Source: Glycera tridactyla
Taxonomy: Eukaryota
Assembly (NCBI GenBank): GCA_965644265.1
Contig: OZ286468.1
Location: forward strand, 28,892,001 to 28,956,000
Direction: 5' to 3'
Length of the DNA: 64,000 nt
In this document: piece by piece, positions 32,600 to 56,769 of the stretch
How positions within the stretch are numbered: position 1 is the first letter of the stretch
How the letters are laid out: every line of letters begins with the position of its first letter
Notes under the pieces: model-generated
Seen by the model: the letters and a program-made list of their open reading frames with translations, nothing else
Database searches by the model: none
What the model was told of the DNA's origin: nothing
Made by a program: the position numbers and the translations under genes

Positions 32600-32743
32600 A
32601 GTCAGAAATGACACCTGGAGTGTCTGTGAATTTCATAGAAGGAGGAGTCTTGAAGATCCCACCCATGCCCATTGCATGGGCGTCACAATATAGCCCAGAT
32701 GGTGCTGACGTGACGTTAAACCAGAACCAACCAACCAACTAAC
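32600..32743 (+). mobile_element. SINE family A, 5'-truncated insertion
   Basis: 13-bp TSD TTGCATCAAAACA (32587-32599 and 32744-32756); (CCAA)n tail; empty site in unit 2 near 35947-35960. Confidence 0.9.
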
Positions 32744-35181: not shown

Positions 35182-36902
35182 GACTAGAATGAGGAATTAA
35201 TGGTATTAATTCCAGCAAGATCAAACAAAGGAGGAGGAAGAGGAGGTGGAATAGCCTGACTATGTGCCTTTGCACCTTTTAGTGCATTAAAACCTTAAAA
35301 GGCACAATAACTTTTCATATTGTTTTGTTATACTTGGAAGGGCACATACATATTCGACAGTATGGCGAAAGGGCACATGCACACTTGGGAGTCTGGATAT
35401 TCCTGCAGTCGTTCATACAGCTCAGCTGACCACTATCAGGACAAAAATGCAAATAATGCAATGAACAATTTCTTACTTGATCCATAACTCCCGCAGGAAG
35501 TCCTTAGTGATCACCTGCAGCAACATATTGAGGGTCTTGAGAGGTACTTCAAATAGCTCATTTATCCTCTCAACACCCTTGTTGGTTGTCACATTGAAGT
35601 TCTGGCTGTGGAATGCCCGAGCCCCATATCTCAAACACAAATGATGATAGAAACATGCTTTAACTTCTTTAATACATTGCCTTTGGCCTATGAATCCAGA
35701 TGTAACATTAGAAAATATCTACATTGAAAAAAATGCTTTATGAGTTTGGACGATGGATATCGCCCTCAAATATCGCCCGCAGCATGCTGAAGGTTGATAA
35801 AATCCTAATCAAGGCATCATGTGAATATCACATCTGATTTGTCAAGGATGGCCCTACCTTAGCCTTGCAAAGCCACCTTTTCTCCAGCCAGGTCCTCAGG
35901 GTCTTGTTGCTGCACCAGTATGAGCTTTTCTTCAGTGCAGTCAATGTTGCATCAAAACAGGCAGTATCACGAGCCTTCGCAATATTCCTCAGAAGATTGA
36001 GGACGTTGTCATGGCAGGACAGTGGCACGCCACTTTTGTGTGAGGAAATCCATCTCCACCATGCCTGCTCTCTGTGGAAGTCACAGAGATACAGTTCCAC
36101 AGTGTCTGTGAATTTCATAAATTTTCGCCTTCTGTTGGGGATCCAGAAGGAGGAGTATTGAATGATCACACCCATGCCCATTGCATGGGCGTCACAATAT
36201 AGCCCAGATGGAGCTGACGTGACGTTAAACCCCCAACAAAACCAAAACAGTTCCGCATCTTGGAACTGACAGAAATCTTCCATACGAAGTGAGCATCGTA
36301 CATGTATGGAATTCATGGTTATGCCACTGTCAAAGTACTCTTTTCTTTCGAGAATCCAGGGCTTAACATTAAGGATTTTAGCCACTTGCCTGGCAGGCAG
36401 TGCTCAACAAGAAAAATGGACCTGCCACACCGATGTTTTCTGTGCAAGTAGTTTCAAATGTACTGACTTGCCAGCATCAGGAGCACCACCAATAAAAAGA
36501 GTCCTGATAGAGGCGAGTGGACAGGACAGCTCTTAGTCTTAATCCTTTTGGAAACTAACTGAGGGCCAGTCAGAACAGAGGACACATGCAACATCTTGAA
36601 TAATTATTTTTCATCGTGTGCCAGCTGGTGTAGGTATATTTTAGACTATTTGCATTAATTATCACTATTTGTTGAATTACAAACAATGAATGAAACAAAA
36701 CATCAGTGGCAAAATTTAGGCTCTCATTCACCAGCTTGCTTGCCCACTGGGTACTGTTTCCTGCTTGAATTAGGAACAACAATGGCAGGGGCTAGGTGTA
36801 TGTTGTAGCTTTTATTTGAAACCAGCTGTAGTAGAGAAATTATATATATATATGTATATATTCAGGAGACAAGGCAAGACGTCCGCTGGCACTGAAGGGA
36901 AG

Positions 36903-36943
<41 letters not shown>

Positions 36944-38878
36944 GCATGGATCATATAATTATGTGAATACAAAAAATTATCAATCATAATAGTCATGTGC
37001 AGCTAATGTGAGAGGAGAGAAAAATTATGTGCAGATCCATAGTCCACAGAAAACAATACATTTATCAGAGCATAAATCATAATTATTTTCACTGTACACA
37101 CTTTACATATCACCATCAACATTTTTTCAAATCAATTCTTCAAGATTGACCAATGAGAAAAATGTTTTATCTCATTGTTGTCCACTCGTTTCTCTCAAAA
37201 CTCTGTTAATTGCAGTATGACCTCAGTCACCACACCAGAGAAACCACACAAAAGTAGGATACTTCAGTCAAGCACAGAATTGTACAGTCAGAACTATCAC
37301 ACCAGAATTATACAAAGACTGAGCTCATGGCAAGCTCTCTTGATATCTTGAATACAAAATATTAGTATTACCCACCAGACATTTCATCGCTGCTCTATAA
37401 TAAAACATAGTTACAACTTTTCTCAAACGAGTATGAGAGCTGGTCAGTTGGATTGATATTTTTCACTTTCGAAAGACAAGTTTATGGTCAGAAAAAATAC
37501 ATGAATACTGCTCTTTCAGAGTTTTCACGTGTGTATGTAAAGGTTGACCTGTCGACTTAATTCCACAGTCCAGGAGGCAGGCTCCTCAAATCCAATGTCC
37601 TGTCAAGCAGTGATGCTGTTTGAATTTTACTCAAAACACCTTCATTGTTTCATCTAGGATATGCAAAAAAACCTCATTAGGCCCACATATTGAAAAGATA
37701 AGGGATTGATTGGATGAAGTTTGATGTCGCTTGAAAGATAGATTATGACTTTATCTGGATATCCATGCTAGGAGCATGGGAAGGGGTCACCAATGTGTCT
37801 CCCTCTCCTGGATCCCACAAAAAGAGGTGAAGGAATTTATGAGAATGGTTGTTAGGTGAAAACAGCCGGTAGCTCAAAAAACTGTGTTGGAAGGGGCAAG
37901 GACTGGAAAAAAATGTGTCAAATGGTACTGATGTCCCCTCTAGATGTAACACTAGAACAACTTTCCACAATGAAGGACTGGATTTTAAAACTCACCAGGG
38001 AAAACAGATGAGATTGCTGTCATTTCTGCCTCACTGTAATCTGTCATGTAGGAATCTAGATTCCACTGGGGATTCCATCCCCGTAGCACCTCAAGAGCCT
38101 CCTCGATTGCTAGACCTGTTTCAAACTACCTGATTAACAGAGCAACAATGATGTATTGCACATTCGTTGTCATGCACACAAAGAACAATGGTAGAGCATA
38201 TCAGATGGTAAGGTAAGTTGCATCCAACAACACAACTTCATTTCCATATAGGTTGAGGATGTGTCTTTGCCACTTTGTCTGATAGACAAGCAGCATACCG
38301 GGAGGTGTATTGGCACATGGTTTGACCTCTTCACACCCATCACTGTCATCCATCTCCTGACTCTCGGGAATGATTTGTGATGTCTGTAAAAAATCTGATC
38401 CTCTGGACTCTCAAGTACCCAAAGCGAAGGTCAAGGTCCCTTCAACGCAAGCGGGCATGCTGCAAAGGTACCTTATGTGCCAGCTCAGAGATGCCTTGAT
38501 AGAGGCTTCCATGTCAATGAAGGCCCGTGGACCCTGCTGTGAGATGGATGGTAAAGGTATCACTGGAATATTCAAGTTCCTCCACTTCCATTTGCCTAAC
38601 TGAGTCGATGAATACAAGAGCCATATGTACATTGCCAAGTAGGGCATAGGATCTAAAACCTGTGATCCATCCCTGATAATCCCTGGAAGATGTGATTGAC
38701 CCTAATAAAGCCCAAAATTGCCCTTAGTTGACTAGTCTTATCAGTACAATTAATTATAAGACCAGAGGCTGAACGATCAAAAATGACTAAAGACTGTAAT
38801 GTAATAACAAATTGAGGGAATGGAGCGCATTCTTTTGCTTTAATTCAGTCAAAGCAAATAAGTAATTGATATGTGAAT
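35182..38878 (-). pseudogene. MULE transposase remnant, tandem unit 2 (3697 bp)
   Basis: Anchor GACTAGAATGAGGAATTAATGGTA at about 30230, 35182 and 38879; LYLCDFHREQAWWRWIS...LRTWLEKRWL in ORF 35828..36385 (Mutator CxxH motif). Confidence 0.8.
36099..36246 (+). mobile_element. SINE family A, 5'-truncated insertion
   Basis: 8-bp TSD ACAGTTCC (36091-36098 and 36247-36254); empty site in unit 1 near 32885. Confidence 0.88.
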
Positions 38879-39396
38879 GACTAGAATGAGGAATTAATGG
38901 TAGTAATTCCAGCCAGATCTAAGAAAGGAGGAGGAGGAGATGGGATAGCCTGACTATGTGCCTTTGCACCTTTTAGCGCATCAAAACCTCAAGAGGCACA
39001 TTAACTTTTCATATTGTTTTGTTTTACTTTGAAGGGCACATACATATTCGGCAGTATGGTGAAAGGGCACATGCACACTTGGGAGTCTGGATATTCCTGC
39101 AGTCGTTTATACAGCTCAGCTGACCACTATCAGGACAAAAATGCAAATAATGCAATAAACAATGTCTTAGTTGATCCATAACTCCCACAGGAAATCCTTA
39201 ATTATCACCTGCAGCAACATACTGAGGGTCTTGAGAGGTACTTCAATAGCTCATTTATCCTCTCAACACCATTGTTGGTTGTCACATTGAAGTTCTGGCT
39301 GTGGAATGCCCGAGCCCGATTTCTCAAAAACAAATGATGATAGAAACATGCTTTAACTTCTTCAATACATTGCCTATGGCCTATGAATCCAGGTGT
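38879..39396 (-). pseudogene. MULE remnant, partial tandem unit 3
   Basis: Colinear with 35182-35705 until an abrupt junction at about 39396. Confidence 0.75.
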
Positions 39397-39413
39397 AAGA
39401 CGAATCCTGATTC

Positions 39414-40437
39414 CTGGAAATTAGCAGATAAGATGTCATGACATGTACGCGATCCAAAATTATCAGATGCAGGCAGGCTGCTATCATACATGATACTTAC
39501 CATCACACATGTGCCCTGAGTTTGTTTCTAGGTGACAAAATCAACATTGACTATCAGCCCCTAGACATGCACCCATTGTCCCCTGGTCGTATTTTGGTGA
39601 TGAGTGCTGACAAAGTGTCAATCGGATGTCCATCAAGAGCTGTGGTAGTCAGGGAAGGTTGTCTCTACTGTGTTCCGAAACAACCATGTGCATGTGGTAT
39701 AACTGTCATGGATGCCGAGGGCAGGTCAATTTCACGTGCACCAGTCCTGCATAATTGTAGCAGTGATACATGAACTCAACAGGTGGAATTTCCAGTAAAT
39801 TTAGCAGCACTCTCTAGGTTAATGGACCCAGCCAAATTGTTGATTTTTTCAGTTAATTCCTATGATTGTATCGTCTGTGTCAAAAATCCCAGAACCACAA
39901 ATTCCGATCAATCCAGGTGTAGACAGCCTGATCATGCATGAATTCTATAGATTTGGCATGGATTTGGGTGAGGCTGCAACTCAGCTAAAGCATGATCAGG
40001 TGAAAGCAGACACTTCCCATCTCTTGTTTTTAGAGGACTAAAAGCCTTAAAAGTAGGGGCGATATTTTATATACATTCGCCTATATAGAATGTAACTACT
40101 GGAAATATTTATCAAAAATATGGCTCAGGAAATCTCACTCCAGCAGTGCATCAAAGCGACCGGAAAGTATAAACAGACCATTACAGGCACACTAGCAAAT
40201 ACACATTTCATTGATGTTGGAATAATAATATGCTCCGCAGCCAGCCTTCTGCTATTAGGTCATTCAGTTGGACTTTGGAAACAGACTTTAACTATAACCA
40301 CTCACACCAAAATGGTGAATGTGAGAATGTGTAATCCCACGGGAAGCATCAGGGTTTCTTCATTGGCAGTGCAACGCCACAGAAATTACAACAAACTTAT
40401 GAAAGACCAGCGTGGTTGTGTGGAAATCCAGCAATAG
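39414..40437 (+). pseudogene. Envelope-like (fusion glycoprotein-type) ORF remnant of an LTR retrotransposon
   Basis: Cys-rich ectodomain-like MTCTRSKIIRC..HTCALSLF..LSPGRILV..CP..GCLYCV..PCAC..APVLHNC; continues past a TGA (FPVNLAALSRL) and a frameshift; hydrophobic GIIICSAASLLLLGHSVGLW in ORF 40120..40437; directly followed by PPT and LTR. Family call from recalled motif pattern only. Confidence 0.55.
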
Positions 40438-40474
40438 TGGGAAATCCACCAAAATCTATATAAGGGAGGAAAAT

Positions 40475-40993
40475 TGTGATTTCCTTACTCTTGGAAATTA
40501 CTGACACACCGAATGTACGAAACTTTCCTTGCTCTCAAGAATTCTCCAGGAAAGCTGATGTAGTCATACACCACATTGGATCTCTAATGTCTGACAATAG
40601 CAAGAGGATTTTCCATGCTGCAAATTTCTGTTAAATTGATTGGAGCTGTGCCATATTGACTGGATCTGTGCTATATTGACTGGAGCCTAGTTACACACAT
40701 TGACTGGATCCGTGCCTCATTAACTGGATCTGTGAACACTACCATATTTCCTGGATTGTGAAAGTGCCAGTGAATGTTGTGCCTTTCAGTGAATTATTTG
40801 AATCATCCTCTGTACATTCATCGTGAAGTGACTGATCCGGTGTTGTCAAGTACATTTATCTATAGTTTGTGAGTTGCCTCAATCTTGAAGTCTGCTTAGA
40901 GGTTTGGTTTGAGTTAGGATTGTTGCCCGTGATTTCTTCAAGATCTCCTGCCTCACCTGTGGGTCACCTCAGACCTTGCATTGTAAAATCACA
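40475..40993 (+). mobile_element. 3' LTR (519 bp) of the env-bearing element
   Basis: TGTGATTT...AAATCACA perfect 8-bp terminal inverted repeat (TG...CA); preceded by purine tract AAGGGAGGAAAA (40462-40473); five ~20-bp ATTGACTGGATCTGTG repeats at 40635-40739. Confidence 0.75.
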
Positions 40994-41656
40994 AGCAAGC
41001 GAGTTTGTAGTTTCTTCCCTCCCCCCCCCCCCCCCATATATTTGTAAGCAGGTGAACTCGACCCTAGCTCACAGCTCCGGGGGAAGCTCGGGGTGTGGAC
41101 AGACAACAATGAGAAGTAGCGGGGAGTTGTAGACTTTATTTGTCATATCGTACAAGAAAGAAGACGAAGAAAAGACCCCTCATGAACAAGAGAATCCTGC
41201 TCCTATCTGGACGCGCACATGGACACAGCATTCCCATTCCTTGGAGGTGGATGGAGAAGGATTCTCACAATCTAGAAAGCTGCTACAGATGTTGCAGAGA
41301 GCTTGTTAGGAGTGTGCTCTCTTCATCCTGGTTTGGCAGGAAATGGTGTGGTCAGGGGGTGTATGCTGTGCCCACCAGTACCCCATCAGATGGCAACAGG
41401 TGGAAACCCCTGTCAACTGCCCTCTGGTGGGAGGGACATACAACTGCCATCCAGGGGACTGTGATCAGCCTCATCAGTCCTGGCCACACACCAGGGTGAT
41501 ACAGCTACCAGCCAAGTGCTGTGGAGAAATGGCAAACATGTGCCGAGACCATTTGGTCACTGGTCACATATTCCCCGCTGCTTTTACACCCTCATGTCCC
41601 ATGAGGAACAACAAGAGAAAAGGAGACAGGGATGCAACAATGCATCGTACATCCAT

Positions 41657-41964
41657 CAACAAGAACAGCCAGTGTCAGATACACTGGGACACATGGGTGC
41701 ACTAACTTGTAGTGCATTGACAGACCAAACGGTCAACAAGAACAGCCAGCATCGGATACACTGGAACACAGGGATGCACTAACTTGTAGTGCATCCATAG
41801 ACCAAACGGTCAACAAGAACAGCCAGTGTCGGATACACTGGGACACATGGGTGCACTAACCTGTAGTGCATCCGCAGATCAAATGGTCAACAAGAACAGC
41901 CAGCGTCGGATACACTGGAACACAGGGATGCACTTGTAGTGCATCCACAGACCAAACGGTCAAC
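41657..41964. repeat. Four 77-bp tandem repeats in the Gypsy 3' untranslated region
   Basis: Starts at 41657, 41734, 41811 and 41888 (last unit 73 bp); the first three contain the hairpin TGCACTA-n5-TAGTGCA, shortened in the fourth. Confidence 0.93.
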
Positions 41965-42023
41965 CACAAACAAAAACAAAAACACAATCAACTGTAAGAA
42001 CTGTCCTCAGACCACAGTGCGCA

Positions 42024-45000
42024 CTACACATAATTAGCATGTTTGCTAGTACACGAGAAGACGGGAGCGCCATATCGCTCTGGCTGACTACCAGCAGTCG
42101 CCCTTGTGGTCCTATGAACCCAGTGATCATCATCATCATCAGAATCAGATGAACTGTCTGCTGCTACAGGTGGAAATGCCCTCTCGGCTCTGGGCCACTG
42201 GACTTGTATGGCAGGATCCTCATCACTGCTCTCCTCAGAAGACTCCTCCGTATCGGAGACTCTTTCATGGGCCATTCTGACTTGGCAAGGTGGGAGCAAA
42301 TTCGGTAGAGGTGGTTTGGCTGGCTCCTCTGCATGGCAAACTTGGAGGTCTTTGCGAGTGACTGTTCGCTCTGCTCCAAAACCATCAGCAGGCTCCACTT
42401 CGTAGACATCATTATCACCAACCTTGCTGACAATCTTGAACACCCTGTCCTTCCAAAAATCTTGGATCTTTGCTCGACCAGGGGTGAACAAGCACAGGAA
42501 AACACTCTCGCCGATTGGCAATGGTGCATCCACCGCCTTCCGATCAAAGATCTGCTCCCGGGCCAGAGCCGCAGTCCTGAGCTGTTGATTAGCTTGTTCA
42601 GAAGTCTTCTGCAGCCTCGACTGGTGAACTGATAACCAGTCGTCTTCCCCTTTGGCATCATCAACCCCTAGTCGGATGTCAGAGGGCATCTTTGGATCAT
42701 GTCCAAACATCAAGTAGAATGGTGACATTCCTGTCGAAGCGTGTGGAGTTACATTATAGGCATTGACCGCTTTCTTGATGGCCTCATGCCAGCGCTTCTT
42801 TTTCCAGCTGGTAGGCTACGCAACAGGTTATGCAGCGTTCGGTTGAATCGCTCCACCCGACCATTTCCTTGAGGATGCCCAGGGGTTGTCCGAGACTTGG
42901 TGATCCCATACCACATGCATAACTCAGCGATCATGTTCGAATCAAAATTCTTACCACGGTCACTGAATCCGCAGGGGAACTCCATAGTGGAAAAACCACT
43001 CGTTGACAAGGATCCTAGCCACTGTTGTGGCTTTCTGGTCCCTTGCAGGGACAGCAACAGTGTACTTCGTGAAAACATCAGTCATGACCAGCACATGTTC
43101 TAAACCATTTGATGATGGCTCTAGCGTTGTAAAATCCACGGCTAGCACCCCCAGAGGTCGTGATGCAAGTAGGCTCCCCATCGGCGTCCGGGTCTTCACA
43201 TGAGGCATTTTTGCCAAGGTACACAGTCCGCAGTCCTCAAGCCAGTCCTTGACATCTCCATACAGACCAATCCAGAAGTACTTCTGTCTGATCAGCGCAT
43301 CAACCCGGTCAGTGCCATGGTGTCCCAAATGGTCATGATGCTGCTCTATCTGGGACAAGCAGTTGCTTACACTCTCCCCGAACCCTGTCTTGCAACCTCT
43401 TGTATAGCACTCCGTCTTGGAACACAAGCTTTGGCCAATGCTTGAGCAAGAGTTTGGTCTTTCGGGGCAGTGCCTGCCACTCTCTCCCCTCTGGTTGGCT
43501 TCCTGCTTCAAAAGCCTTGAGAAGAGGCCTCAGAACTACATCCTGGAGTTGCAGCTTGCGCATGGACTGTGGGGTGTACTGCGGGATGGTTGTGACTGCG
43601 TGAGGTACAGTACCATCTTGCCCAACATGAGCAACGTGACCTTTGGACAAATGTGCCGCAGCCTTCACTAGATTCCTTCTCAAAACAAGGGGCACCCCAG
43701 TGCTGTCAAGGACAGCTGCCATAACCTCGGCACACTTATCTGATGTCACAGCAGTCGCGGAATGGCCAGGCCTAGGCTCCTTTTTTCCCTTGGTCAGATA
43801 CAAGCCCAACACGTCCACAATCTCATGGAGGTCATCGTCATCAGAAAGTTCAGGACGTGGCCCCAACCTGGATAAACCATCAGCATTGCCATTCTTGATC
43901 CCAGGCATATACTTGATTTGAAAATTGAATGGGGCCAGGTCTGCGACCCATCTCTGCTCAATAGCCGGAAGTTCGGCTTTTGTCTGGATGTAGGTCAGTG
44001 GGTTGTTGTCAGTGTAAACCGTGACTGTTGACCCAAGCAAATAATCCCTGAATGTCTCAGCCATTCCCCACTTCAGTGCGAGGAGCTCGAGTCTCTTGCT
44101 GCTATAGTTCTGCATATTCCTCTCTGTGGGACATAGCCCTCGACTTGCAAAGGCCACTACTCGCTTCTTGCCCTCTTGATCCTGCGACAAAACTGCACCT
44201 AAGCCATGAAAGGATGCATCTACCTCCAGTACGAATGGCAGACTATAGTCGGCATAAACCAAAATTGGAGCAGTGGTCAAGGCTTCTTTCAGTTGGTCGA
44301 ATGCTCTATGGCACTCTTCCGTCCAGGCAGAAGTGATGGATGGCGATCATGCTTTGCGTCCTGACTTTTGTCCACTGTTGACTTCAAAAGGGCATTACAC
44401 TCACCAATGAGCTTGTGCGGAGGGGCAGCAATTGCAGCAAAACCTTCAACATAGCGCCTATAGTATGATGCTAGACCCAGAAATGCTCTAGCCTCTCTCA
44501 CCGTGGTAGGTACTGGCCAGTGCTTCACCACACCAATCTTGTCGGGATCTGTTGCGACTCCAGCTGCAGAGATGTGGTGTCCCAGGTACAAGACTTCTTT
44601 CTGGAAAAAAATTGCACTTCCTCAGTTCCAGTTTTAGCCCAAACTCTTGCAGCCTCTGGAAAACTCTTTCCAGCCTACCCAAGTGATCCTCTACATTCAT
44701 TGAAAAGATGATAATGTCATCAAGATACACAAGAAGAATGTTGAAAACATCACTGTCGAATGCCTGTTGCATGAGATGCTGGAAGGTCGAGAGAGCATTG
44801 CAAAGACCAAATGGCATTTGCAAGTATTCAAACAATCCGAGGGTGTTGTGAGTACAGTCTTTCGACGATCTTCTTCGGCTACCTCCACCTGGTTATATGC
44901 AGACTGAATGGTCAAGGACTGAGAACACCTTAGCACCACTCAGTGCATCCATCGACTCCTCAATACGAGGCAGCGGAAAGGCATCCTTCTTCATTTTTGC

Positions 45001-46028
45001 GTTGACCTGCCGGTAATCCACGCACAGCCGCAGGTCCCCAGACTTCTTACGAACAAGGACTATGGGACTGGTATAGTCACTTTTGCTTGGCTGAATGATT
45101 CCCTTTTTCAGCAAGCCCTGGATATGGGTGCGCACCTCCTCAAATTGATTTGGTGGTATCCTGCGATAGGGCTGCCTGACTGGGAAATCATCTGTGATTG
45201 GAATGCAATGCTTTGTGGCACTGGCATGGCCCAAGTCCAAGTCGTCAGCTGCGAATACGTGCCTGTACTTGGCAAATACCCCCATTACCTTTCGGCGCTG
45301 TTCTTCAGTCCTCGAAAACCCAGATAGATCCAACTCCTCCAGCCATTCACTGGCATCGCCCGGCATATCTCCACTGCCAGAGGTTACAACAACCTCTGTC
45401 GAACTAACGCACAAATCAACTACCGGGGGCACGACATCCACACAGAGGGCAGAGCCAATGGGTGTCCTTGGCTTCAACCAGACATCCTGCTCTCCAAAGT
45501 TCACAATGCGAACATAACACACACCAGAGGTACTATCGACTACCATCCGGCAGAGACTGATGCCTCCTGGAAGGGGTGTCATCAGTGGCTCAACCAGAAC
45601 CTCTGCCCCAACCACATTTCCTGTGACAGGCACATCAACAACCGACCCAGCAGTCACCCGAACAGACTTCAGCCCCGCGATCCAATAACACCCACTCTCG
45701 ACAAGACACTCTTTCTTGTCGGTGTTGTCGGAAGATGCTTGTATTCGGGCAGGTCCTGAAGAACATTTTACCAACCAACCCATCACACGCAGAGGGGGAG
45801 TGTCTCGTTACCAAAATTCCACGAGAAGGCAAAACATGTCCGTTGACCTCAACATCCATGGTTAAGAAGCCTTCGCATGGCATCTCGAGCCCGTTTGCAG
45901 CTCGCAACTTCAACCAGGACAGAGGAAACTTGGGGTCGCCTACCAAATGACGGAGATGCCTCTCAAAAAACTTACTGGTGACTGTTGGTCACAACAGAAC
46001 CAGTGTCAATCAGACAAGACACGGGTAA
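42024..46028 (-). pseudogene. Gypsy pol (PR - dUTPase-like linker - RT - RNaseH - IN - GPY/F) in several frames
   Basis: CLIDTGS (45999-46007); RLCVDYR, KDAFPLPRIE, YLDD; EVDASFHGLGAVL, YSSKRLELLAL, TDNNPL; HDHLGH..CGLC, AVDF, SDRG, RVERFN. Confidence 0.93.
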
Positions 46029-46044
46029 CCCACTCCTGGTACCA
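46029..46044 (-). promoter_or_regulatory. Primer-binding site complementary to tRNA-Leu(UAA) 3' end
   Basis: Minus strand TGGTACCAGGAGTGGG, 6 nt from the 5' LTR; matches the recalled metazoan tRNA-Leu(UAA) end ...CCCACUCCUGGUA-CCA. Confidence 0.75.
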
Positions 46045-46582
46045 AAAATATGTAAGCAGGTAAACTGGACCCTAGCTCACAGCTCCGGGGGAAGCTCGGG
46101 GTGTGGACAGACAACAATGAGAAGTAGCGGGGAGTTGTAGACTTTATTTGTCATATCGTACAAGAAAGAAGACGAAGAAAAGACCCCTCATGAACAAGAG
46201 AATCCTGCTCCTATCTGGGCGCGCACATGGACACAGCATTCCCATTCCTTGGAGGTGGATGGAGAAGGATTCTCACAATCTAGAAAGCTGCTACAGATGT
46301 TGCAGAGAGCTTGTTAGGAGTGTGCTCTCTTCATCCTGGTTTGGCAGGAAATGGTGTGGTCAGGGGGTGTATGCTGTGCCCACCAGTACCCCATCAGATG
46401 GCAACAGGTGGAAACCCTTGTCAACTGCCTTCTGGTGGGAGGGACATACAACTGCCATCTAGGGGACTGTGATCAGCCTCACCACAGTCCTGGCCACACA
46501 CCAGGGTGATACAGCTACCAGCCAAGTGCTGTGGAGAAATGGCAAACATGTGCCGAGACCATTTGGTCACATATTAATTCCA

Positions 46583-46584
<2 letters not shown>

Positions 46585-46632
<48 letters not shown>
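46585..46632. repeat. (TA)n microsatellite
   Basis: 24 TA units. Confidence 0.97.
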
Positions 46633-46636
<4 letters not shown>

Positions 46637-47217
46637 TGAAGGGTTAAGGCTGGATACAAGGGGTTCTCACTAAAGACAGATTTTCTGTGCAGTTGACTCA
46701 ATTCCCTGCAATATTATTATATTTATATAGTGCATTGAGAGGCCAGTATAGGAAGTGGAAAAGCTCCCTGAGACAGTTCTTACTGTACATCTCTGAATTA
46801 CATGATTCAAGTCCTTAAGGTGAAAGTGCTGCTTAGTACAGATTCAGCTGTGTGGCTTTGGATTGTGGGTTTTCAATTTTTCAGTAAGGTTGGTCCCTGA
46901 GACAGGTTTGACTGCCCTTCCAGACTGCAAAATTTGCAATCTTCAATATAATACCCAAATAGTACAAAAGTGACACTTCCTTAGGCTAACTGGAGATAGA
47001 TTGTGGCTTATAACTGGTAGACATAGGAGATTCCATCAGCAGGATTCGAGTGATCAAAGAGTCTAGCTTGAGATTTGGAAAGTCACATATCCTTAGGCTG
47101 ACAAGATTGTGGCTTGAAATAGGTTAGCACAGATCACCCCAATAGCTGGTGTTTTGCTGGGTTGTAAGTGATGTCCGGTGGGCAGAGAGGGAATCACCCT
47201 ACTGTGAGAACACATAC

Positions 47218-47441
47218 CCTGAGTCATTAGCATCGGAAATCCTGGCATCCTTCCCGGAGGTTTGAATTCCATTCTCTGGACCCCATGGGGAGCCCGGGGA
47301 AGAATTGGCCCCATGTTTCCCTATGTGTCGTAAGAGGGGACTAAGTGAGCATCGCAGAAATGGCACCTTGAGTATCTGTGAATTTCATAAATTTTCACCT
47401 TCTGTTTGGGACCCAGAAGGAGTCTTGGAAGATCCCACCCA
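47218..47441 (+). mobile_element. SINE family A copy retaining a tRNA-like head; 3' part lost
   Basis: A-box-like TAGCATCGG 47228-47236; B-box-like GGTTTGAATTCC 47259-47270; GTCGTAAGAGGGGACTAA 47327-47344; family A body from 47371. Confidence 0.6.
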
Positions 47442-47780
47442 TAGAATAGAATAGAATAGAATAGAATAGAATAAACTTTTATTTATCCAGGCTTAAGTGG
47501 GCAATAATGATGGTACATACATTCATTAAGGATGTAGCAGGGAGTTTTTCTAGTTCCCTGACTGGCACATATGACATAACACTAGTAGGTGACTTGCCCA
47601 CCTTCCTAGATACCTCTATCACTGTCCTTCGAATAAATACTGCATTATTTTTATGCCCAAACATGTGTGAACACCAAACCGGGGATTTTTCCAAAATTGA
47701 CCCTGGTGTTGGTTGGTGGCTGTGTGCTTGAGTAGATTTGTGGGTATGATTGCCTGAGATCTGGCAAGACACCTACCAAT
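47442..47780 (-). mobile_element. Probable LINE 3' tail with AATAAA and (TTCTA)n
   Basis: Plus strand (GAATA)n 47442-47472 followed by TTTATT; interrupts the SINE; 5' limit uncertain. Confidence 0.4.
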
Positions 47781-48009
47781 TTTGAGATGGCTATGTTGAA
47801 TTTTTCCATATTTCTTCTATATTTCATCATTTTTGGAGTAATTCAATAAAATTTTCAACACTGGCTAGCAAAAAAACGGATCTGGTGACATGCTTTTTTT
47901 TTTCTCACTTATTTTGATTGTCCAGTAATGAACCACAAAATGAATGAAAAAAATTGAATCCAGCAAATATTCCTGTATGGTCTGTAGGGTGATTTGTGAT
48001 TTTTCAGTG

Positions 48010-51000
48010 TTTTTTTTTTTTTTTGTTTGAAAAAGCTTTATTTGCAGCATAGCAATATAAACAGCACATTACATGCATGCAAAAACAAATAAAGTAGATT
48101 GCCAATCATTATTAAGCAAGATGGATAAGAAAAAAAGTTCAAATAACAAGTAATCCCGAGATAGATAGAAGTATACAATACATCAATCAAGACTTGGACA
48201 TCAGGACAGAGAAAGAGATAAGTGTGACAAATAATATAGAAAATAAATTTGTATCAAGAGCAATTGTAGACAACCAAAACATTGACAAGAATTATTTGCG
48301 CGAATCTCACGAATTTCACGAAAGATCAGGCAGTACGTCAAAGTAAGTGACGTAGCTATAATTGGACACACCAGTACTGACCATGATATATAATTGGCAT
48401 ACATATGAGCGACCTGACACTAGCATATTAAGCTAGCACTATGATATTACAATATTATAATAGCGGCTGTTTTGGTACTATTTCAGGAATTTTTTAATTG
48501 CCATTTTGAAACTAATATTAGTAGGTAACTCACGAAGATGAGGCGGCAAGCCATTCCAGTTCAGCGCACCTCGATAACGGATATTTGCAGAAGCGAACAC
48601 CGTGTTGCAAACATTGATATATAGATCATCACGGAATTGTTGTCTAGTAACACGTTCACTTACATCGCCAACATGTCTGAACATATATGAAAGGGAAGTC
48701 TCAGAATTGTCATTAACAGCACGCTGTACCTGAATTGCTACATTCCTGTCACGTACTATATGTAGTGGTGAAACACCGAGTCTCTCACGCAATGCAGAGG
48801 CGGAGTTCGAGGTAGTGTTATAGCCAGCAACAGTACGTAGACAATTGTTTTGTGAGACCTGAAGTTTTTGGCACAGAGTGATACCAGCACTTCCATAAAG
48901 AAAGTCACAATATAAATAAAGTGGATGAATTAAAGCAAAATACAATTGCAATGCACGCGCTTCGGTGAGATAGTTTCTAATCCGTGAAAGTGCTCTACGA
49001 CGGACAAATATCTTTCCAAGTAAGTAGTTAATATGTTGCTCAAAGGATAAGTGTTCATCAACAATCATGCCTAAATATTCAAATTTGTCCACACGGTAGA
49101 TAGTTTTTCCATTGAAGTCAATATTATTGAGTGTAATAGTCCGAACTTGAGGTCTAGTTCCAAAAATCATGATGTTAGATTTATCGACATTTAATGTCAA
49201 TTTCATGATATCAAACCAATTCGCAACCCGCATAAGATCGCGTGTCAACGTAGCGCATAGCATTTCTTCATTCGGGGCACTGCAGAATATGGCAGTGTCA
49301 TCTGCATATAATAAGATTTTTGTGTCTGTCAAGACATTCGGTAAGTCATTTACGTATGATACGAAAAGAAGAGGTCCAAGTATGGACCCCTGTGGGACTC
49401 CATGAGATATGCTCAAGTGGTCAGATATGGCATTATTAATACGTACAGTTTGATGGCGATTGCATAGATAGGACCTAAACCAATTCACTGCACTATGGCG
49501 TAAGCCAAGCCTCGATAATTTATTGACTAGAATTTCATGATTCACAGTGTCAAAGGCTTTTTTCAGATCCAGGAAGAGTACTCCAGTGGGACAGCCATTA
49601 TCTGCTGCAGAATAGACGTTGTCCAAGAGAATAGACAAGCATGTCCCAGTGGAGCAACCCTTCCTGAATCCGAATTGGCAATTAGAAAATATATCATAAT
49701 TGTCAAAATAATTATACAATTGCGTATGAATTACACGTTCCAATATTTTACTGAGGCTAGGCAAGATGGAGATTGGTCGGTAGTTATTCATTTCATAGAG
49801 CGAGCCACTCTTGAATAATACATTAACCGTAGCCAACTTCCACCTTGAGGGAAAAATAGAAGAACGCATAGAAAGATTACATACGTGTAATAAAACAACT
49901 AGTGCAGAGTCTGGCAATAGCTTTAAGACATAAGACGTAAGGCAGTCTGGACCAGCTGCAGCACTGTTCTTCATATCCTTGATACTTGAACGGATATCAT
50001 GAATATCAATAGGTCTGAACTCAAAAACAGGTGCTCTATAAGGGAGAAACTCAGATAGATCAGGGTTGTCATCGGCAAAATTTGATGCTAGGTTTGGGCC
50101 TACATCGGCAAAGTGACGATTAAAGAGATTGGCTTTACCTAAATCTGATTCGATCCCATTTATTGTTGGGATCACACAATTTTCAGAGGTAAGGGGCCAT
50201 AATTTCTTCAATTCGCGCCATAGCTTCTTGTGATCATTGGCATGTGAATCGAGGGTACCTAATATATATCCCTTTTTGAGGCTGGTTTTGAGACGATATC
50301 GTTGACGAAAGGCTTCCTTTTTGAGGACAAGATTAACTAAATTAGGATTCGAATTATAAAGTCTAGATCTATAGGAGCATAAATCTACAAGGCTTAAAAA
50401 GTCATTATTTATCCACTGGGCACCACGGTCATAAACCGTTTTGGTGACAAGTGGTGCAATAGCATCAAGATTTTTAGTCAATATTTCCTCGAAGCCGTTA
50501 GTAACAGTGTCAATATCATTAGAATCCAACAGGGGGCCCCAGTCAACGGCACTAAGATAGCGTGATAAATTTTCTTTTGTCATCTTTCGCCAAGACCTAA
50601 ATGTGGCTACGGTTTTCTTTTTTGGCAGCTTAGTCCGATGTCTCGTTGTATACACTAGCTTATGGTCACTTAGACCCAACTCAAATGTCCCTGAGTAGCT
50701 GAAATACTCTGTACGAGAGACAAGAATATGATCTATTAAAGAACTAACAGTGGGACATACATGTGTCGGATCAGCAATTATTTGAGAAAGCGACTGACGA
50801 CGAATAAAATTTGAATACTTTCTGACTTTCGGGTCTCTTGGCTTTAGCATATTAATGTTGATATCACCGAGAAGTACAGTGTCAAAGACACCAAGAGGAG
50901 TCATGTCATCTAGTAAAGTACTAATTGTTGTTAAACTTCGTTCCAAATTTCCGTCAGGTGGTCGATAGATCCCAGCCATAATTGTCGGTCGACAATTCGA

Positions 51001-51660
51001 AAGTTTCCATTGAAAAGCCAGAATCTCAACATCCTGATCACAAAAGAGTTTACACGTACTAAGATCAATATTATATATAGGGTTGAAATAGCATAAAATG
51101 CCGCCGCCACATGATTTTCCACTGGCAGCTGTTCTATCACTCCGGATTAACGAGTATCCTGGGATATCAAATTCTTTATTGGCAATGGAATCATTGAGAA
51201 AGGTCTCTATTAAAAAAAGAAAGTCCAATTTACTTTTGCTCAAAAAAAGTCTTAATTCGTCAATGTGTCTAGTTACACTGCGAATATTTAAGGCTGCAAT
51301 CTTGATTCCAGGCAGGTTAGAAAGACATGCATAAGCATATTCAAAGTCGGACCTGATGTCCAGTGAGGGTAGTACAAACGTGTTACGTCGGCGATTGTTC
51401 ATGTATGATGGAATGAATACCGCTGTATCAGAAAATAATTATGATAAAATAAACAATTTAAGTAGAAGAGAAGACTAGGGAGAATGGTCGGGCAGTGGGA
51501 ATTGCAAGGTTAGATAATATACATCGAGTTCGCTTCAAACAAAAATGATAATAGGTGCTGTGATTGATAGAAAATGAAACCAAAAAGGTGGAAGTGGACA
51601 ATAAATGACTAAAGTGAAAAACTGCAATTCAAGAAGCAGCCATTTTCAATGGTTTCCGTG
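48010..51660 (-). mobile_element. CR1/L2-group LINE A, probably full length, no ORF1 visible
   Basis: Poly(A) tail 48010-48024 with AATAAA just upstream; intact ORF2; YY1-like AAAATGGCTGC at 51636-51646; 5' end approximate; no TSD found. Confidence 0.75.
48478..51402 (-). CDS. LINE ORF2 (AP endonuclease plus reverse transcriptase), intact, 974 aa
   Basis: EN: LNIRS, IETFL, YRPP, GDININ, IDHIL, SDH; RT: YRPISIL, QFGFRKG, LDLKKAFDTVNH, GVPQGSILGP, YADD. Confidence 0.96.
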   Translation of the reverse strand: MNNRRRNTFVLPSLDIRSDFEYAYACLSNLPGIKIAALNIRSVTRHIDELRLFLSKSKLDFLFLIETFLNDSIANKEFDIPGYSLIRSDRTAASGKSCGGGILCYFNPIYNIDLSTCKLFCDQDVEILAFQWKLSNCRPTIMAGIYRPPDGNLERSLTTISTLLDDMTPLGVFDTVLLGDININMLKPRDPKVRKYSNFIRRQSLSQIIADPTHVCPTVSSLIDHILVSRTEYFSYSGTFELGLSDHKLVYTTRHRTKLPKKKTVATFRSWRKMTKENLSRYLSAVDWGPLLDSNDIDTVTNGFEEILTKNLDAIAPLVTKTVYDRGAQWINNDFLSLVDLCSYRSRLYNSNPNLVNLVLKKEAFRQRYRLKTSLKKGYILGTLDSHANDHKKLWRELKKLWPLTSENCVIPTINGIESDLGKANLFNRHFADVGPNLASNFADDNPDLSEFLPYRAPVFEFRPIDIHDIRSSIKDMKNSAAAGPDCLTSYVLKLLPDSALVVLLHVCNLSMRSSIFPSRWKLATVNVLFKSGSLYEMNNYRPISILPSLSKILERVIHTQLYNYFDNYDIFSNCQFGFRKGCSTGTCLSILLDNVYSAADNGCPTGVLFLDLKKAFDTVNHEILVNKLSRLGLRHSAVNWFRSYLCNRHQTVRINNAISDHLSISHGVPQGSILGPLLFVSYVNDLPNVLTDTKILLYADDTAIFCSAPNEEMLCATLTRDLMRVANWFDIMKLTLNVDKSNIMIFGTRPQVRTITLNNIDFNGKTIYRVDKFEYLGMIVDEHLSFEQHINYLLGKIFVRRRALSRIRNYLTEARALQLYFALIHPLYLYCDFLYGSAGITLCQKLQVSQNNCLRTVAGYNTTSNSASALRERLGVSPLHIVRDRNVAIQVQRAVNDNSETSLSYMFRHVGDVSERVTRQQFRDDLYINVCNTVFASANIRYRGALNWNGLPPHLRELPTNISFKMAIKKFLK

Positions 51661-52349
51661 GACTATTGGGTCTTTTTTATCGTGAAAAACATTTTCTCCA
51701 TGCGAAATTCCCAATTCATGTTGCATTAGGATACAAGACAAAATAAATAAGAGGTTTGATTGATTCAAATATGGTGTTTATGTAATATTTCTCGATGAAA
51801 CTGTATCTTGGCATTTTTTGCAGTTTCTCAATATTTCGACTATTATATAAATAGCTACAGCTGAAAAACGAGCCTGGTGACCCCAACTTTTTTCTCAGGA
51901 AATCTGATCTATACCTCAATAGAAATAATCATATGAAATTTCAAGGATGTGGCAAATTTATAAAAAATTGCCTCATTCATCCTTAAATAGGGTACATCCT
52001 TAGGCTTACGCCTACTCCTCCCCCAGTGCCTGGTTACCATAGTTACATGAAAATATGACACAATTTTCTTCATTCATTCGATTGTTGTTTGGACTTGCTT
52101 TTACATTTCAGTTTCAGCGCCAGTTACATGAAGTATAGTATGAATCCGGAAATTTCAGTGGGAATTAAAAATTCACCTCTCTTATGTTTTAAATTTCAGG
52201 TTTGTTTCTAAGGAAAAAAGAGAAGTGTCCAGGGATGGAAAGAGATATGTAAAGTGACAGCGACCGGGCACCAGGTTCACAATATTCGACAATGATAAAC
52301 ACCAGAAATAAAGACATTCTTACACCACAACAGAAAAGCATATGGACTA

Positions 52350-55300
52350 ACATCAGTCTTGCTTTTGGTACAACATTTTCCTCATCATATTCTTGAATGC
52401 ATTGATAGACCTCGCATTGCGTATTTCAATTGGGAGATTGTTCCAACATCGAGGACCATAAACCGATATACATTAGTCCCCATATTTTGTTTTGGTTCTG
52501 GGTACAATCAGGTTATTGTCAGTCATCGCACGTGTTTGTCTGTCATGTTGCAGATCTAGCGTATTCAGGGAATCATGAAGTCTTTTACATTTGATCTTGT
52601 TGTTGATTATTTTATATAAAAATATTGTATAATTCATACAGCGTCTATCCTCAAGTCGAAGTAGTTCTAACGATAAGTGCATGTCCATAGTATGAGTGCG
52701 GCGACCAACTTGGAGGATGATCCTACATGCACTATTTCGCAGCATTTGGAGCTGATCAAGAGATTCTTTGGAGGTATGAATAAGTAAAATGTCACCGTAG
52801 TCCAACAATGGCAATATTGATGACTTGTAGAGCATTAAAGTCACATTTTCGCCTATGAGTGGTCGGATTCTTCTCAGTACTGACAATTTCTTTTTAGACT
52901 TTTTGACAATATGTTCTACATGTGTATTGAATTTCAGGTTTTCATCTAGTATCATTCCCAGGTACTTAAACGTTGGAACTTGTTCAAGTTGTTCATTGTT
53001 CATTGACAGTACCAGATTTGTATTTCTACGGTAGTGAGTGCTATGGAAGACCATCGCCTTGGTCTTGCTCACATTAAGAGTCAGTCTATTTGATATCAGC
53101 AAATTTTCAAGGTCATATAGGTCTTCCTGCAACTTCATAGATACCTCCTCAACATTACAGCCTGAGTAGTAGATTGCTGTATCGTCAGCATACATGGCCG
53201 TTTTAGAGTTCGCTATACATGAGGGCAGGTCATTAATATAAATTATGAAGAGCAGGGGCCCCAATATCGAGCCCTGGGGAACTCCAACACTTATATTTCC
53301 AAAATTTGATAGTTTCCCTGCAAAGGATGTTATTTGCTTTCTATTTTGAAGATGATTTCTAAACCAATGTTGGACACCATCAGACACCCCATACTGTCCC
53401 AGTTTCTGAAGCAGTATCGGGTGACTGACGGTGTCAAAGGCCTTTTTAAGATCCAAGAACACCATACCCACCTTTCCTTGATCAAGTTCGATATGTATAT
53501 CATTCAATACACTTGATGCAAGTGACAGTTGACAAACCGCTTCTGAAACCAGATTGCGCATCATCAAATCAACCCGTTTCTTGGAAATACTAGAATTTTC
53601 TAGAGAGCTGGGAGTATAGAAATTGGCCTATAATTTGAAACATCGCTTTTTGATCCTTCCTTAAATAATGGTGTCACTTTAGCAGTTTTCCAGTCATCTG
53701 ATATGTCCAATTGGTATAGCTAATGCACTAACACATATTTTAAGAAATCTGGTATTTATCCCATCCAGTCCGGTCGCCTTTGAAATACTCAATTTCCCCA
53801 GTGCATCTCGAATTTTACTTTTCTCTACTAATCTGAAATGGAAATCCAAATCTGGTCCCAGGATTTCAGAGAACTTATCTTGATTCAATTTTGGAATTTG
53901 ATTTGCCAACTTAGCCCCAATTTCACAGAAGAAATTATTAAAATAGTTGGATATCATTTCAGGGTCATCAGTTCCATCAATGACTGGCGTGGAACTTCTA
54001 CCCGATTTTTTACTGGGGAGCAACTTAGCGAGAATGTTCCACAATTTCTTGCAATTTCCTTTGCTGTCTAATTGCATTGTTGATAAATTCCTTTTGAAGA
54101 TTTTTACTAAGCGTGCTGCACTGATTTCTCAAAATCCGATATCTCTCCCAGCTCTCATTTGTTTTATTACTATTGAAAATCAGTTTTGCTGATTCACGAG
54201 CATCCTTCATAGATACATAGTCATCATTCATCCATTCTGGTAACCTGCCTCTAAATTTCATATTCCTATAGGGAACATGAATATCACAAACAGGTATGAA
54301 AATGTCCTTGAAATTATCCCGGGCTTCACATGTGTTCACACTGTTGAGTACAGAGGCCCATGAAAGGCGCTCTGTCTGTTCTAGTAATAAACTGGGACTA
54401 AAATTTCTGAATGATCTGGCATAGACGATCTTGGCAGGTTCCTTTTTGTTGACACACTTACGACAGGTGAATACCATCGCATGGTCAGAGTTACCCGTGT
54501 CAATAGTGTAGGCATGTGAAATATAATTTTCTCTATTATGCAATATCTGATCAATTATAGTACTTGACATGGGCGTGACTCTGGTGGGGATCTTGATCAG
54601 GGACTCTAAATCCAAAGCACACATGAGATATTTCATTTCTCTGTTAGCTGTTAGATGTAATTTTTGAAAGTCTATGTTATAATCTCCGATTATGAATACC
54701 TCTCCTGGTCCTTTTTGGTAGATGTTTAATATGAAATCTTTAATGATTGAACAGCATGACTTCGTATTCCCGTATGGAGGTCTATAAATATTCAATACAT
54801 AAATGGGTCTGGTATTTTTCAGAATAATCTTTATGGTGAGACACTCCAGGTCTATTGTACTACAACAGAAATCAGAACTTAGTTCATATTTCAAACTAGA
54901 TTTGACATATAACACTATTCCGCCACCAGAGTCTCTTCTAGAAAAATCTTGTCTATCTAGTCGCTCAATTTCATATCCTGGGAGGGATATTTCACTGTTA
55001 CAAACAGACATATTCAGAAAAGTTTCAGATATGGACAAGTCCAGGCAGGTGATATGCAATATATGTTTTATTTCATGTAATTTATTGTAGAGATGGCAAA
55101 TATTTTGATGTCCAATACAAATACCCTTCAGTCCCACTATAGCATCGAGTCTTACACTATCTGTCATTTATATATGACTGACCATTTTTACCAAACAATT
55201 TTCAACAAATAAACCCAGTATGTATCCTGAAATGCTTTTGGTTTCTAAATTCTTGTTGCAGTATGTTTCAAAGATCGGATTGATATTCATTCTCACCATA

Positions 55301-55895
55301 GGGAAATGCATCAGGAGTTTTGAGATACAGTCTGAAACAATAGTTCATTTCATGTTACTTGTACCTGCTTGCACAGCATTTTGTCCATCAGAGAACATCT
55401 CATTGAGGTCCTCCTCGGTCCTAATAGGACTACCCCTGTCTGCTTTTTTGAGGGCGGCATATACTTGACCATTCATGGTCCAGCACTTAGCAAGCCTCTT
55501 TCCTTCCTTCTTTCGAACAAGTTGTCAACAGAGAAAGAAGAGGTAAGAGTTTTGCTTAGTCGAAAATTCACTGATAGAAATGCCACATCTGGTGGCTGCC
55601 AATTGCATTCTGGATTGATAGACAGATTTCCTCTTATAGGAATAGACAAATTCACACAGGATGGCCCTGGGCCTTCCTCCAGTTCTATTGCCAATTCTGC
55701 GCGCTGTTTCTATGTCTGCCAATGTAAAACCAGGATTGAGTTTCGTGGACAGTTGCTGAACTAGCAATTCAGGGGTATTCTCGTTTGCCACCTCCTGGAT
55801 ACCTTCAAAGATAAGCAACTTCATATTCACAGCATTTTCAAGTGTATTAACCTTGTCAGTGAGGGATTGGACATTCTTCACATGAGCACAGCTAG
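52350..55895 (-). pseudogene. CR1/L2-group LINE B, decayed: ORF1 remnant (about 55340-55895) and ORF2 in 3 frames with stops
   Basis: ORF1 LLIFEGIQE..IETARRIG..PRAILCEF..CWTMNGQVY; EN ISETFL, YRPPYG, GDYNID, IDQIL, SDH; RT LDLKKAFDTV, GVPQGSILGP, YADD; premature TAA at 52473 followed by CISVYGPRCWNNLP. Confidence 0.9.
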
Positions 55896-55896
55896 A

Positions 55897-55970
55897 GCAT
55901 TGCATGGGCATCACAATATAGCACAGATGGTGCTGACGTGATATTAAACCAGAACCAACCAACCAACCAA
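55897..55970 (+). mobile_element. SINE family A 3' fragment at the 5' edge of LINE B ORF1
   Basis: GCATTGCATGGGCATCACAATATAGCACAGATGGTGCTGACGTG..TTAAACCAGAA(CCAA)n. Confidence 0.85.
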
Positions 55971-56769
55971 TTCCATTCTCTTCGGCTGCAGGGTGATACC
56001 GGCTGGTCAACCCTTTCACCCATCTTGCCTTCTCCTAATCCCCTGCTTAAAAGCCATAACCAGTTCAACAAAAAAATTCATTTACCTCATAAGATAATAG
56101 AGATTGAAAATTTGTAGTGAAACCTGTACAGAATCCCCATTCAGATGACGGGAGTCCTTCTTGAGAGTATTGACCCTACAGTAAATGTGAAGTGGCATTA
56201 TAAAATATATACTGAGCCTGTTTCAATAATTTAACGTGAGTGGATCGCACTTCCTTGAATTTCGAAATTTTCACTTGTTCTCCATATTCTTCTACATACT
56301 CACATTAGAGATGTTCAAGGGATTTATTGAGTACCCAGGATGCTTTTCTCGTCTTTTTGCAGTTTCTTGATGGGTAAGTCTATTATATGCTCACTTTGCT
56401 CATAGAAATCCCGAATGTCATCCACTACATTGTATGAGATCGATACACCAGTGGATGGAGATCGATGTGTGGCTTCAGACTCTATATGAGTTTTCCCAGA
56501 GAATGTTAATTGATTGGCGGGTGCAATCTGCTTGGGGGCAACATTGGTGATAGTGTCCACTGATTGATCAGAGGGCTCGGGTTTCATGTGGGGCTCTCCA
56601 GAGACAATACCCTGATTTGATTCAACCGACTCCTCATTGGCAATAGTGTCCACTGATTGATCAGAGGACTCGGGCCCTATGTAGGGCTCACCAGGGCAAA
56701 CATCAATACAGCCTATCTCACTCAGGCTTTAATTCAGAATTGAATCTATAGCAGTATTAGCCTCAAACT

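Follow-up and report, generated by a model that had tools for sequence, protein, structure and literature searches.

A dead envelope-gene remnant in a likely annelid genome and its relatives, a family of giant Ty3/gypsy elements with a predicted F-type fusion protein

Introduction

The 64-kb stretch of genomic DNA analysed here (hereafter the window) contains a decayed, cysteine-patterned reading frame next to a putative long terminal repeat (LTR), which raises the question of whether an envelope-bearing retroelement once inserted at this site and, if so, what its relatives in the same genome look like. Drosophila errantiviruses, the familiar elements of this kind, are ~7-8.5 kb long, with a frameshifted gag-pol, one furin site and no known antisense ORF, and integrate with a sequence bias. 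The initial annotation of the window had proposed a remnant with an F-like class I fusion protein and had inferred a host lineage outside insects. It rated the novelty too high, since annelid errantiviruses with an F-type env are already in the literature: a survey that took in 23 annelids recorded 1,512 env-bearing Ty3/gypsy elements across metazoans, 74 of them in annelids, nearly all F-type and present in up to 241 copies (Chary and Hayashi, eLife, PMC13524379; our comparisons cover its main text and a portion of its table).

Our analysis makes it probable that what survives in the window is the defunct 3′ terminus of a Ty3/gypsy element (gag-pol-env, 20-21.5 kb) whose host is likely an annelid: part of env, a polypurine tract and a 1.9-kb LTR interrupted twice. 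A sister subfamily of young elements has a gene for what is predicted to be a class I (F-type) fusion protein, and it likely travels from cell to cell in the worm as enveloped particles. The errantivirus with an F-type env in annelids is already known; what differs here is an unusually large and elaborate form, whose more unusual features lie in the intact relatives and were missed in the initial annotation.

The window copy is an inert remnant

The cysteine-patterned frame is present on the plus strand at 39399..40002, where CP..GC..C..PC.C..AP.L.NC..PVNLA can be read in a decayed fragment of an F-type env gene corresponding to the Cys-rich F1 head and stalk, approximately residues 640-860 of relatives of ~960 amino acids. 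The fragment is interrupted by in-frame stops at 39408, 39429 and 39771, has lost ~10 codons near 39540, shifts frame near 39865, and lacks a gene start, membrane anchor and tail. By tblastn it is 60-82% identical to the proteins P0001-P0004, and positions 39397-40003 are colinear with, and 85.7% identical in DNA to, the env of the closest element, the C32 copy (L007-L009); none of three window fragments taken alone matched a Pfam family. Env homology stops at 40002, ahead of the true anchor (approximately residues 870-895 of relatives), and at 40003 it jumps from L007:5645 to L007:2017, the intervening 3.6 kb of the C32 relative being gone. The sequence after this deletion is the end of the 3′ untranslated region (40003..40048, plus strand), followed by a polypurine tract (40049..40061, plus strand) that stands in the same place and in nearly the same letters before the 3′ LTR of the C7, C18 and C32 elements.

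The 519-bp LTR first proposed proved to be the central part of a longer LTR, of ~1.9 kb, that two insertions have since interrupted. Homology to five loci (L009, L010, L011, L013 and L020) begins at 40072, and this common start, together with the LTR length of the C32 element, the closest two-LTR relative (two LTRs of 1,926 bp, 97.8% identical), delimits the window LTR as 40065..41042, 46576..47277 and 55982..56205, all on the plus strand and 1,904 bp in total. The first piece (978 bp) comprises U3, a TATA-like box at 40456 and 20-bp repeats and is 75-77% identical to C32 LTR positions 22-915; the second (702 bp) is 79% identical to positions 942-1604; and the last (224 bp), which ends in TATAAAA, is 84-88% identical to positions 1607-1894. 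A TATA-like box lies at comparable LTR places in four subfamilies. The ~20-bp repeats noted initially hold up, as a 20-bp repeat in 4.8 copies at 40635-40734. The 8-mers taken to bound the LTR, TGTGATTT (40475) and AAATCACA (40986-40993), do exist, occurring 9 and 5 times in the 64-kb window, but both are internal to the LTR; the purine run read as a polypurine tract directly before the LTR (40463-40474) follows the TATA-like box inside it; and what was taken for a C-terminal hydrophobic segment of the envelope ORF is an ORF at 40096-40437 that sits in U3, the true env anchor having been deleted. That hydrophobic ORF also occurs in both LTRs of the C32 relative and at six other LTR loci, and is broken or shortened in 8 of 8 loci tested. 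Elsewhere in the genome, satellite arrays have grown out of portions of the window-type LTR, namely its 20-bp repeat and a 105-bp segment (G000:C47:24396369-24398446, C11:79626373-79629989 and C42:22204992-22235751). An intronless short-chain dehydrogenase frame, possibly a retrocopy, lies ~1 kb away from a solo LTR that belongs to the same subfamily as the window copy (L010:3654-4394; adh_short, E 2e-50).

The first of the two insertions (41043..46571, minus strand) is an unrelated gypsy element without env, with its own ~525-bp LTRs (97.7% identical), a decayed pol and the duplication TATT; its pol is 25-44% identical to the errantivirus pol of the family. The second (47278..55981, unstranded) is a LINE within a LINE, flanked by a 13-bp duplication (47265-47277 / 55969-55981) and carrying endonuclease/RT-type ORFs read by eye; within this block, 48478-51438 is an open endonuclease-RT frame of 986 codons, a young LINE nested in an older LINE inside the LTR. 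On its 5′ side the env fragment adjoins partly repeated MULE/ZSWIM-like DNA-transposon remnants (35308..39398, minus strand), recognised by repeats and a weak Pfam match (PF21056, E 0.0016, below the cut-off). Three partial copies of this kind, with an internal tandem repeat of 124-128 bp, are found in 30200-39398, and a ~2-kb G-rich minisatellite of GGTGT/GGGGTGA units with a GC skew above 0.9 occupies 25506-27600.

A tblastn search of the window and the 10 kb upstream gave no sign of the element's gag, pol or 5′ env. With no gag, pol or 5′ LTR, a broken env and an LTR interrupted twice, the window copy is not a working element; it is an inert remnant, and its dN/dS against C32 in pieces of 27-77 codons (0.65, 0.03 and 0.5) is in line with decay. 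The copy would have lost its 5′ part beside the DNA-transposon remnants and its env anchor by deletion, and would have received the two insertions thereafter.

Relatives are 20-21.5-kb Ty3/gypsy elements with gag, pol and env

A protein search of the window's own genome (2.04 Gb, 207 contigs) yielded 3,777 candidates. Every one of the 150 that were scored matched, many with open frames of ~994 codons; twenty stretches were retrieved around env-type and LTR matches. The elements are laid out as LTR-PBS-gag-(TGA)-pol-antisense ORF-env-PPT-LTR, and four intact-looking ones measure 20,390-21,539 bp with LTRs of 2.2-2.6 kb. LTR pairs were found in five of the six elements examined and in C32, and none was present for the C4 element (L033-L035) within the stretches retrieved. 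The C1 element has a gag of 936 codons from the first ATG, a pol of 1,934 and an env of 993, with 1.7 kb between pol and env, 3.4 kb between env and the 3′ LTR, and 13.3 kb from gag start to env stop. Elements matching the window LTR do carry an ORF downstream of pol: a separate env frame of 993-1003 codons occupies that place in L001, L003, L005, L016, L019 and L025, and a full ORF3 follows pol in four subfamilies. As to the host, a mitochondrial contig is read with the invertebrate code, in which AAA stands for Lys and ATA for Met at conserved positions of COX1. It carries, all on one strand, nad1-nad3-nad2-cox1-cox2-cox3-nad6-cob-atp6-nad5-nad4L-nad4-rRNAs, which we take to be the annelid order. 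These codon readings and this gene layout rule out an echinoderm, a host that would have closed a gap noted in the metazoan survey (PMC13524379).

Pfam matches in pol run Asp protease, RVT_1, RT_RNaseH, RT_RNaseH_2, Integrase_H2C2 and rve, the PR-RT-RH-IN order of the Ty3 type; Gag gave weak matches to Retrotrans_gag and Ty3_capsid, and no BEL/Pao family was listed in the Pfam search of the element proteins. The best PDB match of the reverse transcriptase is that of Ty3, ahead of retroviral enzymes (E 7e-52 versus 5e-39 for the next Gag-Pol entry), a ranking of matches rather than a tree with named references. With a reverse transcriptase nearer Ty3 and an env of the Baculo_F type, the family would fall outside the Retroviridae. 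Pol also contains an RNase H-integrase bridge of ~280 residues. Beyond the integrase it continues for ~430 mostly basic, low-complexity residues (L001:2600-3874, L005:6114-7400), which matched no Pfam family above the cut-off; a short block within them, NPW...DRL.KI...SFLC.W.DR..SW, is conserved and may act as a targeting domain.

In all six elements, from four subfamilies, gag and pol lie in one frame parted by CAA-TGA, and Pol would be made by read-through of this TGA; judged by raw folding energies, the RNA downstream of the gag stop has no strong structure (-4 to -15 kcal/mol over 90 bases). The primer-binding site, TGGTGGAGA, pairs over nine bases with the 3′ end of genomic tRNA-Ala(TGC) plus CCA, a match on which tRNA-Ala would prime reverse transcription. 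A long tandem array of tRNA-Ala(TGC) and tRNA-Leu(TAG) genes lies at G000:C1:36976363-37080743 (L127), and the Ala 3′ end is matched 381 times genome-wide. LTRs of the family start with TTT(T/C)ATA and end in TATAAAA in the young subfamily and the window and in CATTACA in another.

The young sister subfamily, whose env is ~67% identical to the window fragment, has 1,484 exact LTR starts and 581 exact LTR-PBS junctions and hence at least 581 copies, in counts in which small contigs may double-count copies; copy number times length gives ~12-15 Mb, or 0.6-0.7% of the genome. Among the first 100 LTR starts 83 were paired, at a median spacing of 19.35 kb. From copies sampled as the first listed, nearly all on one chromosome, 20 pairs were fetched and 16 could be measured (two had no exact PBS and two no anchor), giving an LTR-pair divergence with a median of 0.09% and a maximum of 1.0%, and a 4-bp target duplication in 13 of the 16. 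In a second subfamily 65 LTR starts were counted, most of them forming pairs 8-12 kb apart, a spacing that marks these copies as internally deleted. We infer that the window copy belongs to an older subfamily than the young burst. Rearranged units were also seen: an internal deletion at L015:4248-8627 has joined the start of gag and the latter half of env into a single frame of 1,460 codons, a 347-kb contig (G000:C3:89652-178306, L019) carries head-to-tail full-length elements that share LTRs, with PBS junctions after three successive LTRs, and six LTR starts spaced 5.2-5.3 kb at G000:C1:64971844-64998161 form a tandem array of a shortened unit.

The U5 tip is fixed within elements and variable between them

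The last ~40-45 bases of U5 differ in 22 of 22 young elements, with pairwise differences of 32-39% against ~2% in the LTR body (a median of 14 edits per 40 bases over 231 pairs, and of 0 just upstream), and yet the two LTRs of one element share the tip with 0-1 mismatches in 16 of 16 pairs. In seven of the 22 the tip is present twice, with a PBS-like linker (220 exact matches genome-wide), and the inner copies of doubled tips resemble the tips of close relatives. In nine elements of the second subfamily the variation is weaker, at 8-14% versus 0-2%.

Slippage and template switching in the first steps of reverse transcription, from a weakly paired primer, would scramble the tip in this manner. 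A real though minority possibility is that the tip is just low-complexity sequence dominated by A, C and T, altered by mutation once inserted or drifting free of constraint. Runs and short repeats are indeed frequent in it and G is scarce (56 of 1,166 bases), the LTR body offers no equally G-poor window to act as a control, and close relatives inherit similar tips, the inner copy of L093 being one edit from L097. Against this, the sharing of one tip by an element's two LTRs indicates that the changes arise before insertion, fifteen pairs less than 1% apart in the body differ by 5-18 edits per 40 tip bases with a median of 0 in the 40 bases upstream, and a duplicated tip that has moved inward differs by at most two edits between L069 and L081, whose bodies are 2% apart. 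Under error-prone priming, a tip fixed within an element and variable between elements would record the fidelity with which tRNA-primed reverse transcription starts, and would serve as a lineage barcode for dating the burst.

Insertion flanks of the young subfamily are rich in 3-periodic repeats

Repeats of period three, for example (TAG)n or (CAC)n, occur at 15 of 27 insertion flanks of the young subfamily, as compared with 57 of 663 nearby windows of sequence, 4 of 2,113 in the window itself and 42 of 3,238 in other loci; the second subfamily has them at 0 of 12 flanks. The young integrase would prefer such repeats, that is, trinucleotide microsatellites.

Relatives encode a predicted class I fusion protein under purifying selection

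Full copies among the relatives combine gag, pol and env with a signal peptide (called by eye from hydrophobicity), furin site and transmembrane anchor: their Env has a hydrophobic N-terminus, a furin-type site followed by a GLFNFGG peptide, a Cys-rich head, a helical stalk and an anchor at ~870-895. Baculo_F was matched above the cut-off by all three full ORF3 proteins (E 7e-10 to 4e-12), and one Env homologue leads to Baculo_F clusters in the Atlas. A PDB sequence search with env returned nothing (best E 0.95), a word-index search one match among 7,993 scored, and a full HMMER search 1,552 matches at E 0.001. The AlphaFold model of the ectodomain, built on an 87-sequence alignment, has a pLDDT of 75.8 and a pTM of 0.63 (45-85 pLDDT in the spacer described below). 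Its best PDB matches by Foldseek are hMPV, RSV and Nipah F (E 1e-7), with TM-scores of 0.24/0.39 and an rmsd near 10; against pneumo- and paramyxovirus F in the PDB it reaches Z 11.2 with an rmsd of 6.8 over 394 aligned residues; and against viral models (BFVD) it matches baculovirus F at E 6e-17, chu-like and abalone herpesvirus glycoproteins scoring best. The low TM-scores are expected from a large insert and mixed conformation and are still a weakness. The predicted head and stalk fold is shared with hMPV/RSV and baculovirus F at 7-12% identity. Similarity to viral fusion proteins in a relative's model, the Baculo_F matches and the position of the ORF after pol all agree with the original reading of the window as the env end of an envelope-bearing, F-type Ty3/gypsy element outside insects.

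Env of this family has a long region ahead of the fusion peptide. Of 162 proteins compared, 64 have the furin and fusion-peptide motif and 42 were measurable; the span from a conserved N-terminal motif to the fusion peptide is 90-119 residues in 29 of these and 199-342 in the other 13. Here it is 335-342 residues, with three or four RxKR/RxRR sites, and judged by the sequences compared, the long-spacer clade extends past this genome. Canonical F2 appears to end at the first furin-type site, which leaves ~220 residues from there to the last site. In RSV F, cleavage at two furin sites releases p27; the spacer here differs from that of pneumovirus F in its length of ~220 residues, its own Cys pair, its N-glycan sites and a third site. 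Furin would cut Env at three sites, freeing the fusion peptide and releasing the spacer as a glycosylated, helical and much larger counterpart of p27. Tandem duplication as the origin of the F2 extension was not supported: against a profile of 29 short-F2 homologues scored with shuffles, the segment before site 1 reached 7.0 (P0001) and 8.1 (P0003) bits, above shuffle maxima of 6.1 and 7.2, and the segment before site 2 only 2.8-3.2 bits, within controls. Among database proteins, P0005-P0013, P0050 and P0062 have an F2 of 199-326 residues with one to three furin-type sites.

In the 20 young copies env is always present, open over at least 900 codons in 12 and broken in 8, and all 12 open genes keep three RxKR sites. 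Env pN/pS is 0.076 for shared variants and 0.25 for singletons, below 0.1 in each of five regions and 0.09 and 0.035 within the spacer, and dN/dS between subfamilies is 0.155-0.16 where synonymous sites are unsaturated. Purifying selection read from sequence in this way is a sign of function, not of infectivity. Moreover, copies can multiply without an env of their own, as the eight broken genes and the mostly shortened second subfamily indicate. Both observations, and the purifying selection on the spacer itself, would suit an env kept for a role other than infection, be it intracellular trafficking, transfer between nurse or somatic cells without free virions, or secretion of a host-modulating spacer, the burst then being ordinary germline retrotransposition. 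We hold this to be unlikely: env retains its signal-like N-terminus, furin site, fusion peptide, Cys-rich head and anchor, with the low pN/pS seen in every region, and the eight env genes are broken at different places, with no shared broken alleles seen. We favour spread as enveloped particles, since the relatives carry a predicted viral-type membrane-fusion gene and so likely move between cells. Infectious spread, Env cleavage and expression of the family are predictions; contigs from four sequencing runs of guessed type span pol, spacer and env, and such contigs cannot show transcription, strand or env splicing. That the window piece comes instead from a free virus (baculo-, chu- or herpes-like) whose F gene was endogenised and by chance sits beside an LTR is vanishingly improbable, as the abalone herpesvirus and chu-like glycoproteins that head the viral fold matches are only 10-15% identical, and colinearity with the C32 element refutes it, the fragment being 80% identical to the env of an LTR element of its own genome whose LTR matches the window LTR in the right order.

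Comparison with known elements

The family has in common with the "ancient errantiviruses" of annelids and molluscs a gag-pol-env layout, an F-type env, a furin site, a fusion peptide and multiple copies; several of those elements also have a tRNA-Ala primer site, and LTRs among them reach ~1.8 kb (PMC13524379, in the parts covered). Judged by these features the family is one that would work like an errantivirus, and it falls within the operational definition given in those parts of the survey. The annelid entries covered are at most ~15.7 kb including 3-kb flanks, as against 20-21.5 kb here, and the filters described in the survey (a pol-env gap of up to 1 kb, a region of up to 10 kb and an LTR distance of up to 14 kb; PMC13524379) would exclude this family, in which the gap is 1.7 kb and pol plus env span 10.5 kb. 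Filters at 10-14 kb thus miss a class of env-bearing elements and, if giants were indeed filtered out of the only metazoan-wide survey, reported absences, as in echinoderms and sponges, may need re-testing. The main text of the survey describes one furin site and nowhere uses the word "accessory" (PMC13524379); here there are three or more sites and an antisense ORF.

Drosophila gypsy, ZAM and Idefix share the three-gene layout, an env related to baculovirus F and a 4-bp target duplication (PMC3383448, in part), and Drosophila errantiviruses use Lys/Ser primers, unlike the Ala match here (PMC13524379). Burro of planarians and Ogre/Retand of plants likewise exceed 20 kb and have long LTRs (PMC6431247 and PMC11963269, each in part). 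Burro has env homology, but in frame between gag and pol in a huge polyprotein (PMC6431247); Retand has antisense ORFs after pol (PMC11963269), but Ogre and Retand both belong to plants, and no Pfam family matches the antisense protein of the present family. The fission-yeast Ty3/gypsy elements Tj1/Tosmo also have an in-frame gag-pol TGA after AA that is read through; the downstream context of the TGA differs here (no CTA/CTG), and Tj1/Tosmo have no env (bioRxiv 10.1101/2022.12.06.519325, in part). In the mostly open-access papers searched and the part of the PMC13524379 table covered, we found neither a hypervariable U5 tip nor an LTR element that targets trinucleotide microsatellites, nor any errantivirus of giant size from an annelid.

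With ~600 near-identical copies and an env under strong purifying selection, the family is a good natural system in which to test the infectivity of a non-insect errantivirus, and its multi-furin spacer extends the architecture of class I fusion proteins. A bolder reading, about which we are doubtful, is of a currently spreading 21-kb "complex" invertebrate retrovirus with a furin-shed 220-residue domain, an antisense accessory gene, a microsatellite-targeting integrase and error-prone priming that stamps each insertion with a heritable, near-unique U5 barcode.

An antisense ORF lies between pol and env

This ORF, 132-245 codons long, was seen in four subfamilies. Its C7 and C18 versions match each other by tblastn (E 1e-6 to 1e-7); those of the young subfamily and C32 are assigned by position and alignment only, and tblastn gave no match between the young version and the other subfamilies. 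All 20 young copies gave a match to it, and a search by motif recovered it open in 16, with a pN/pS of 0.107 for shared variants; dN/dS within the C7 subfamily is 0.61-0.69, pointing to weak constraint. No homologue of the protein appeared among 7,997 sequences scored, and no Pfam family was matched. The model (pLDDT 73.6) has the order alpha-beta-beta-alpha-beta-beta-alpha, with no clear fold match (Foldseek best E 0.014; best Z 5.5, to ACT domains), and a LAGLIDADG-like fold was absent among the fold matches listed. Around this ORF, contigs from three of the four sequencing runs join back over 1,703 bases with 13 foreign letters (L001:3247-4949), a backward joint that may possibly reflect a rearranged copy or a circular or spliced RNA.
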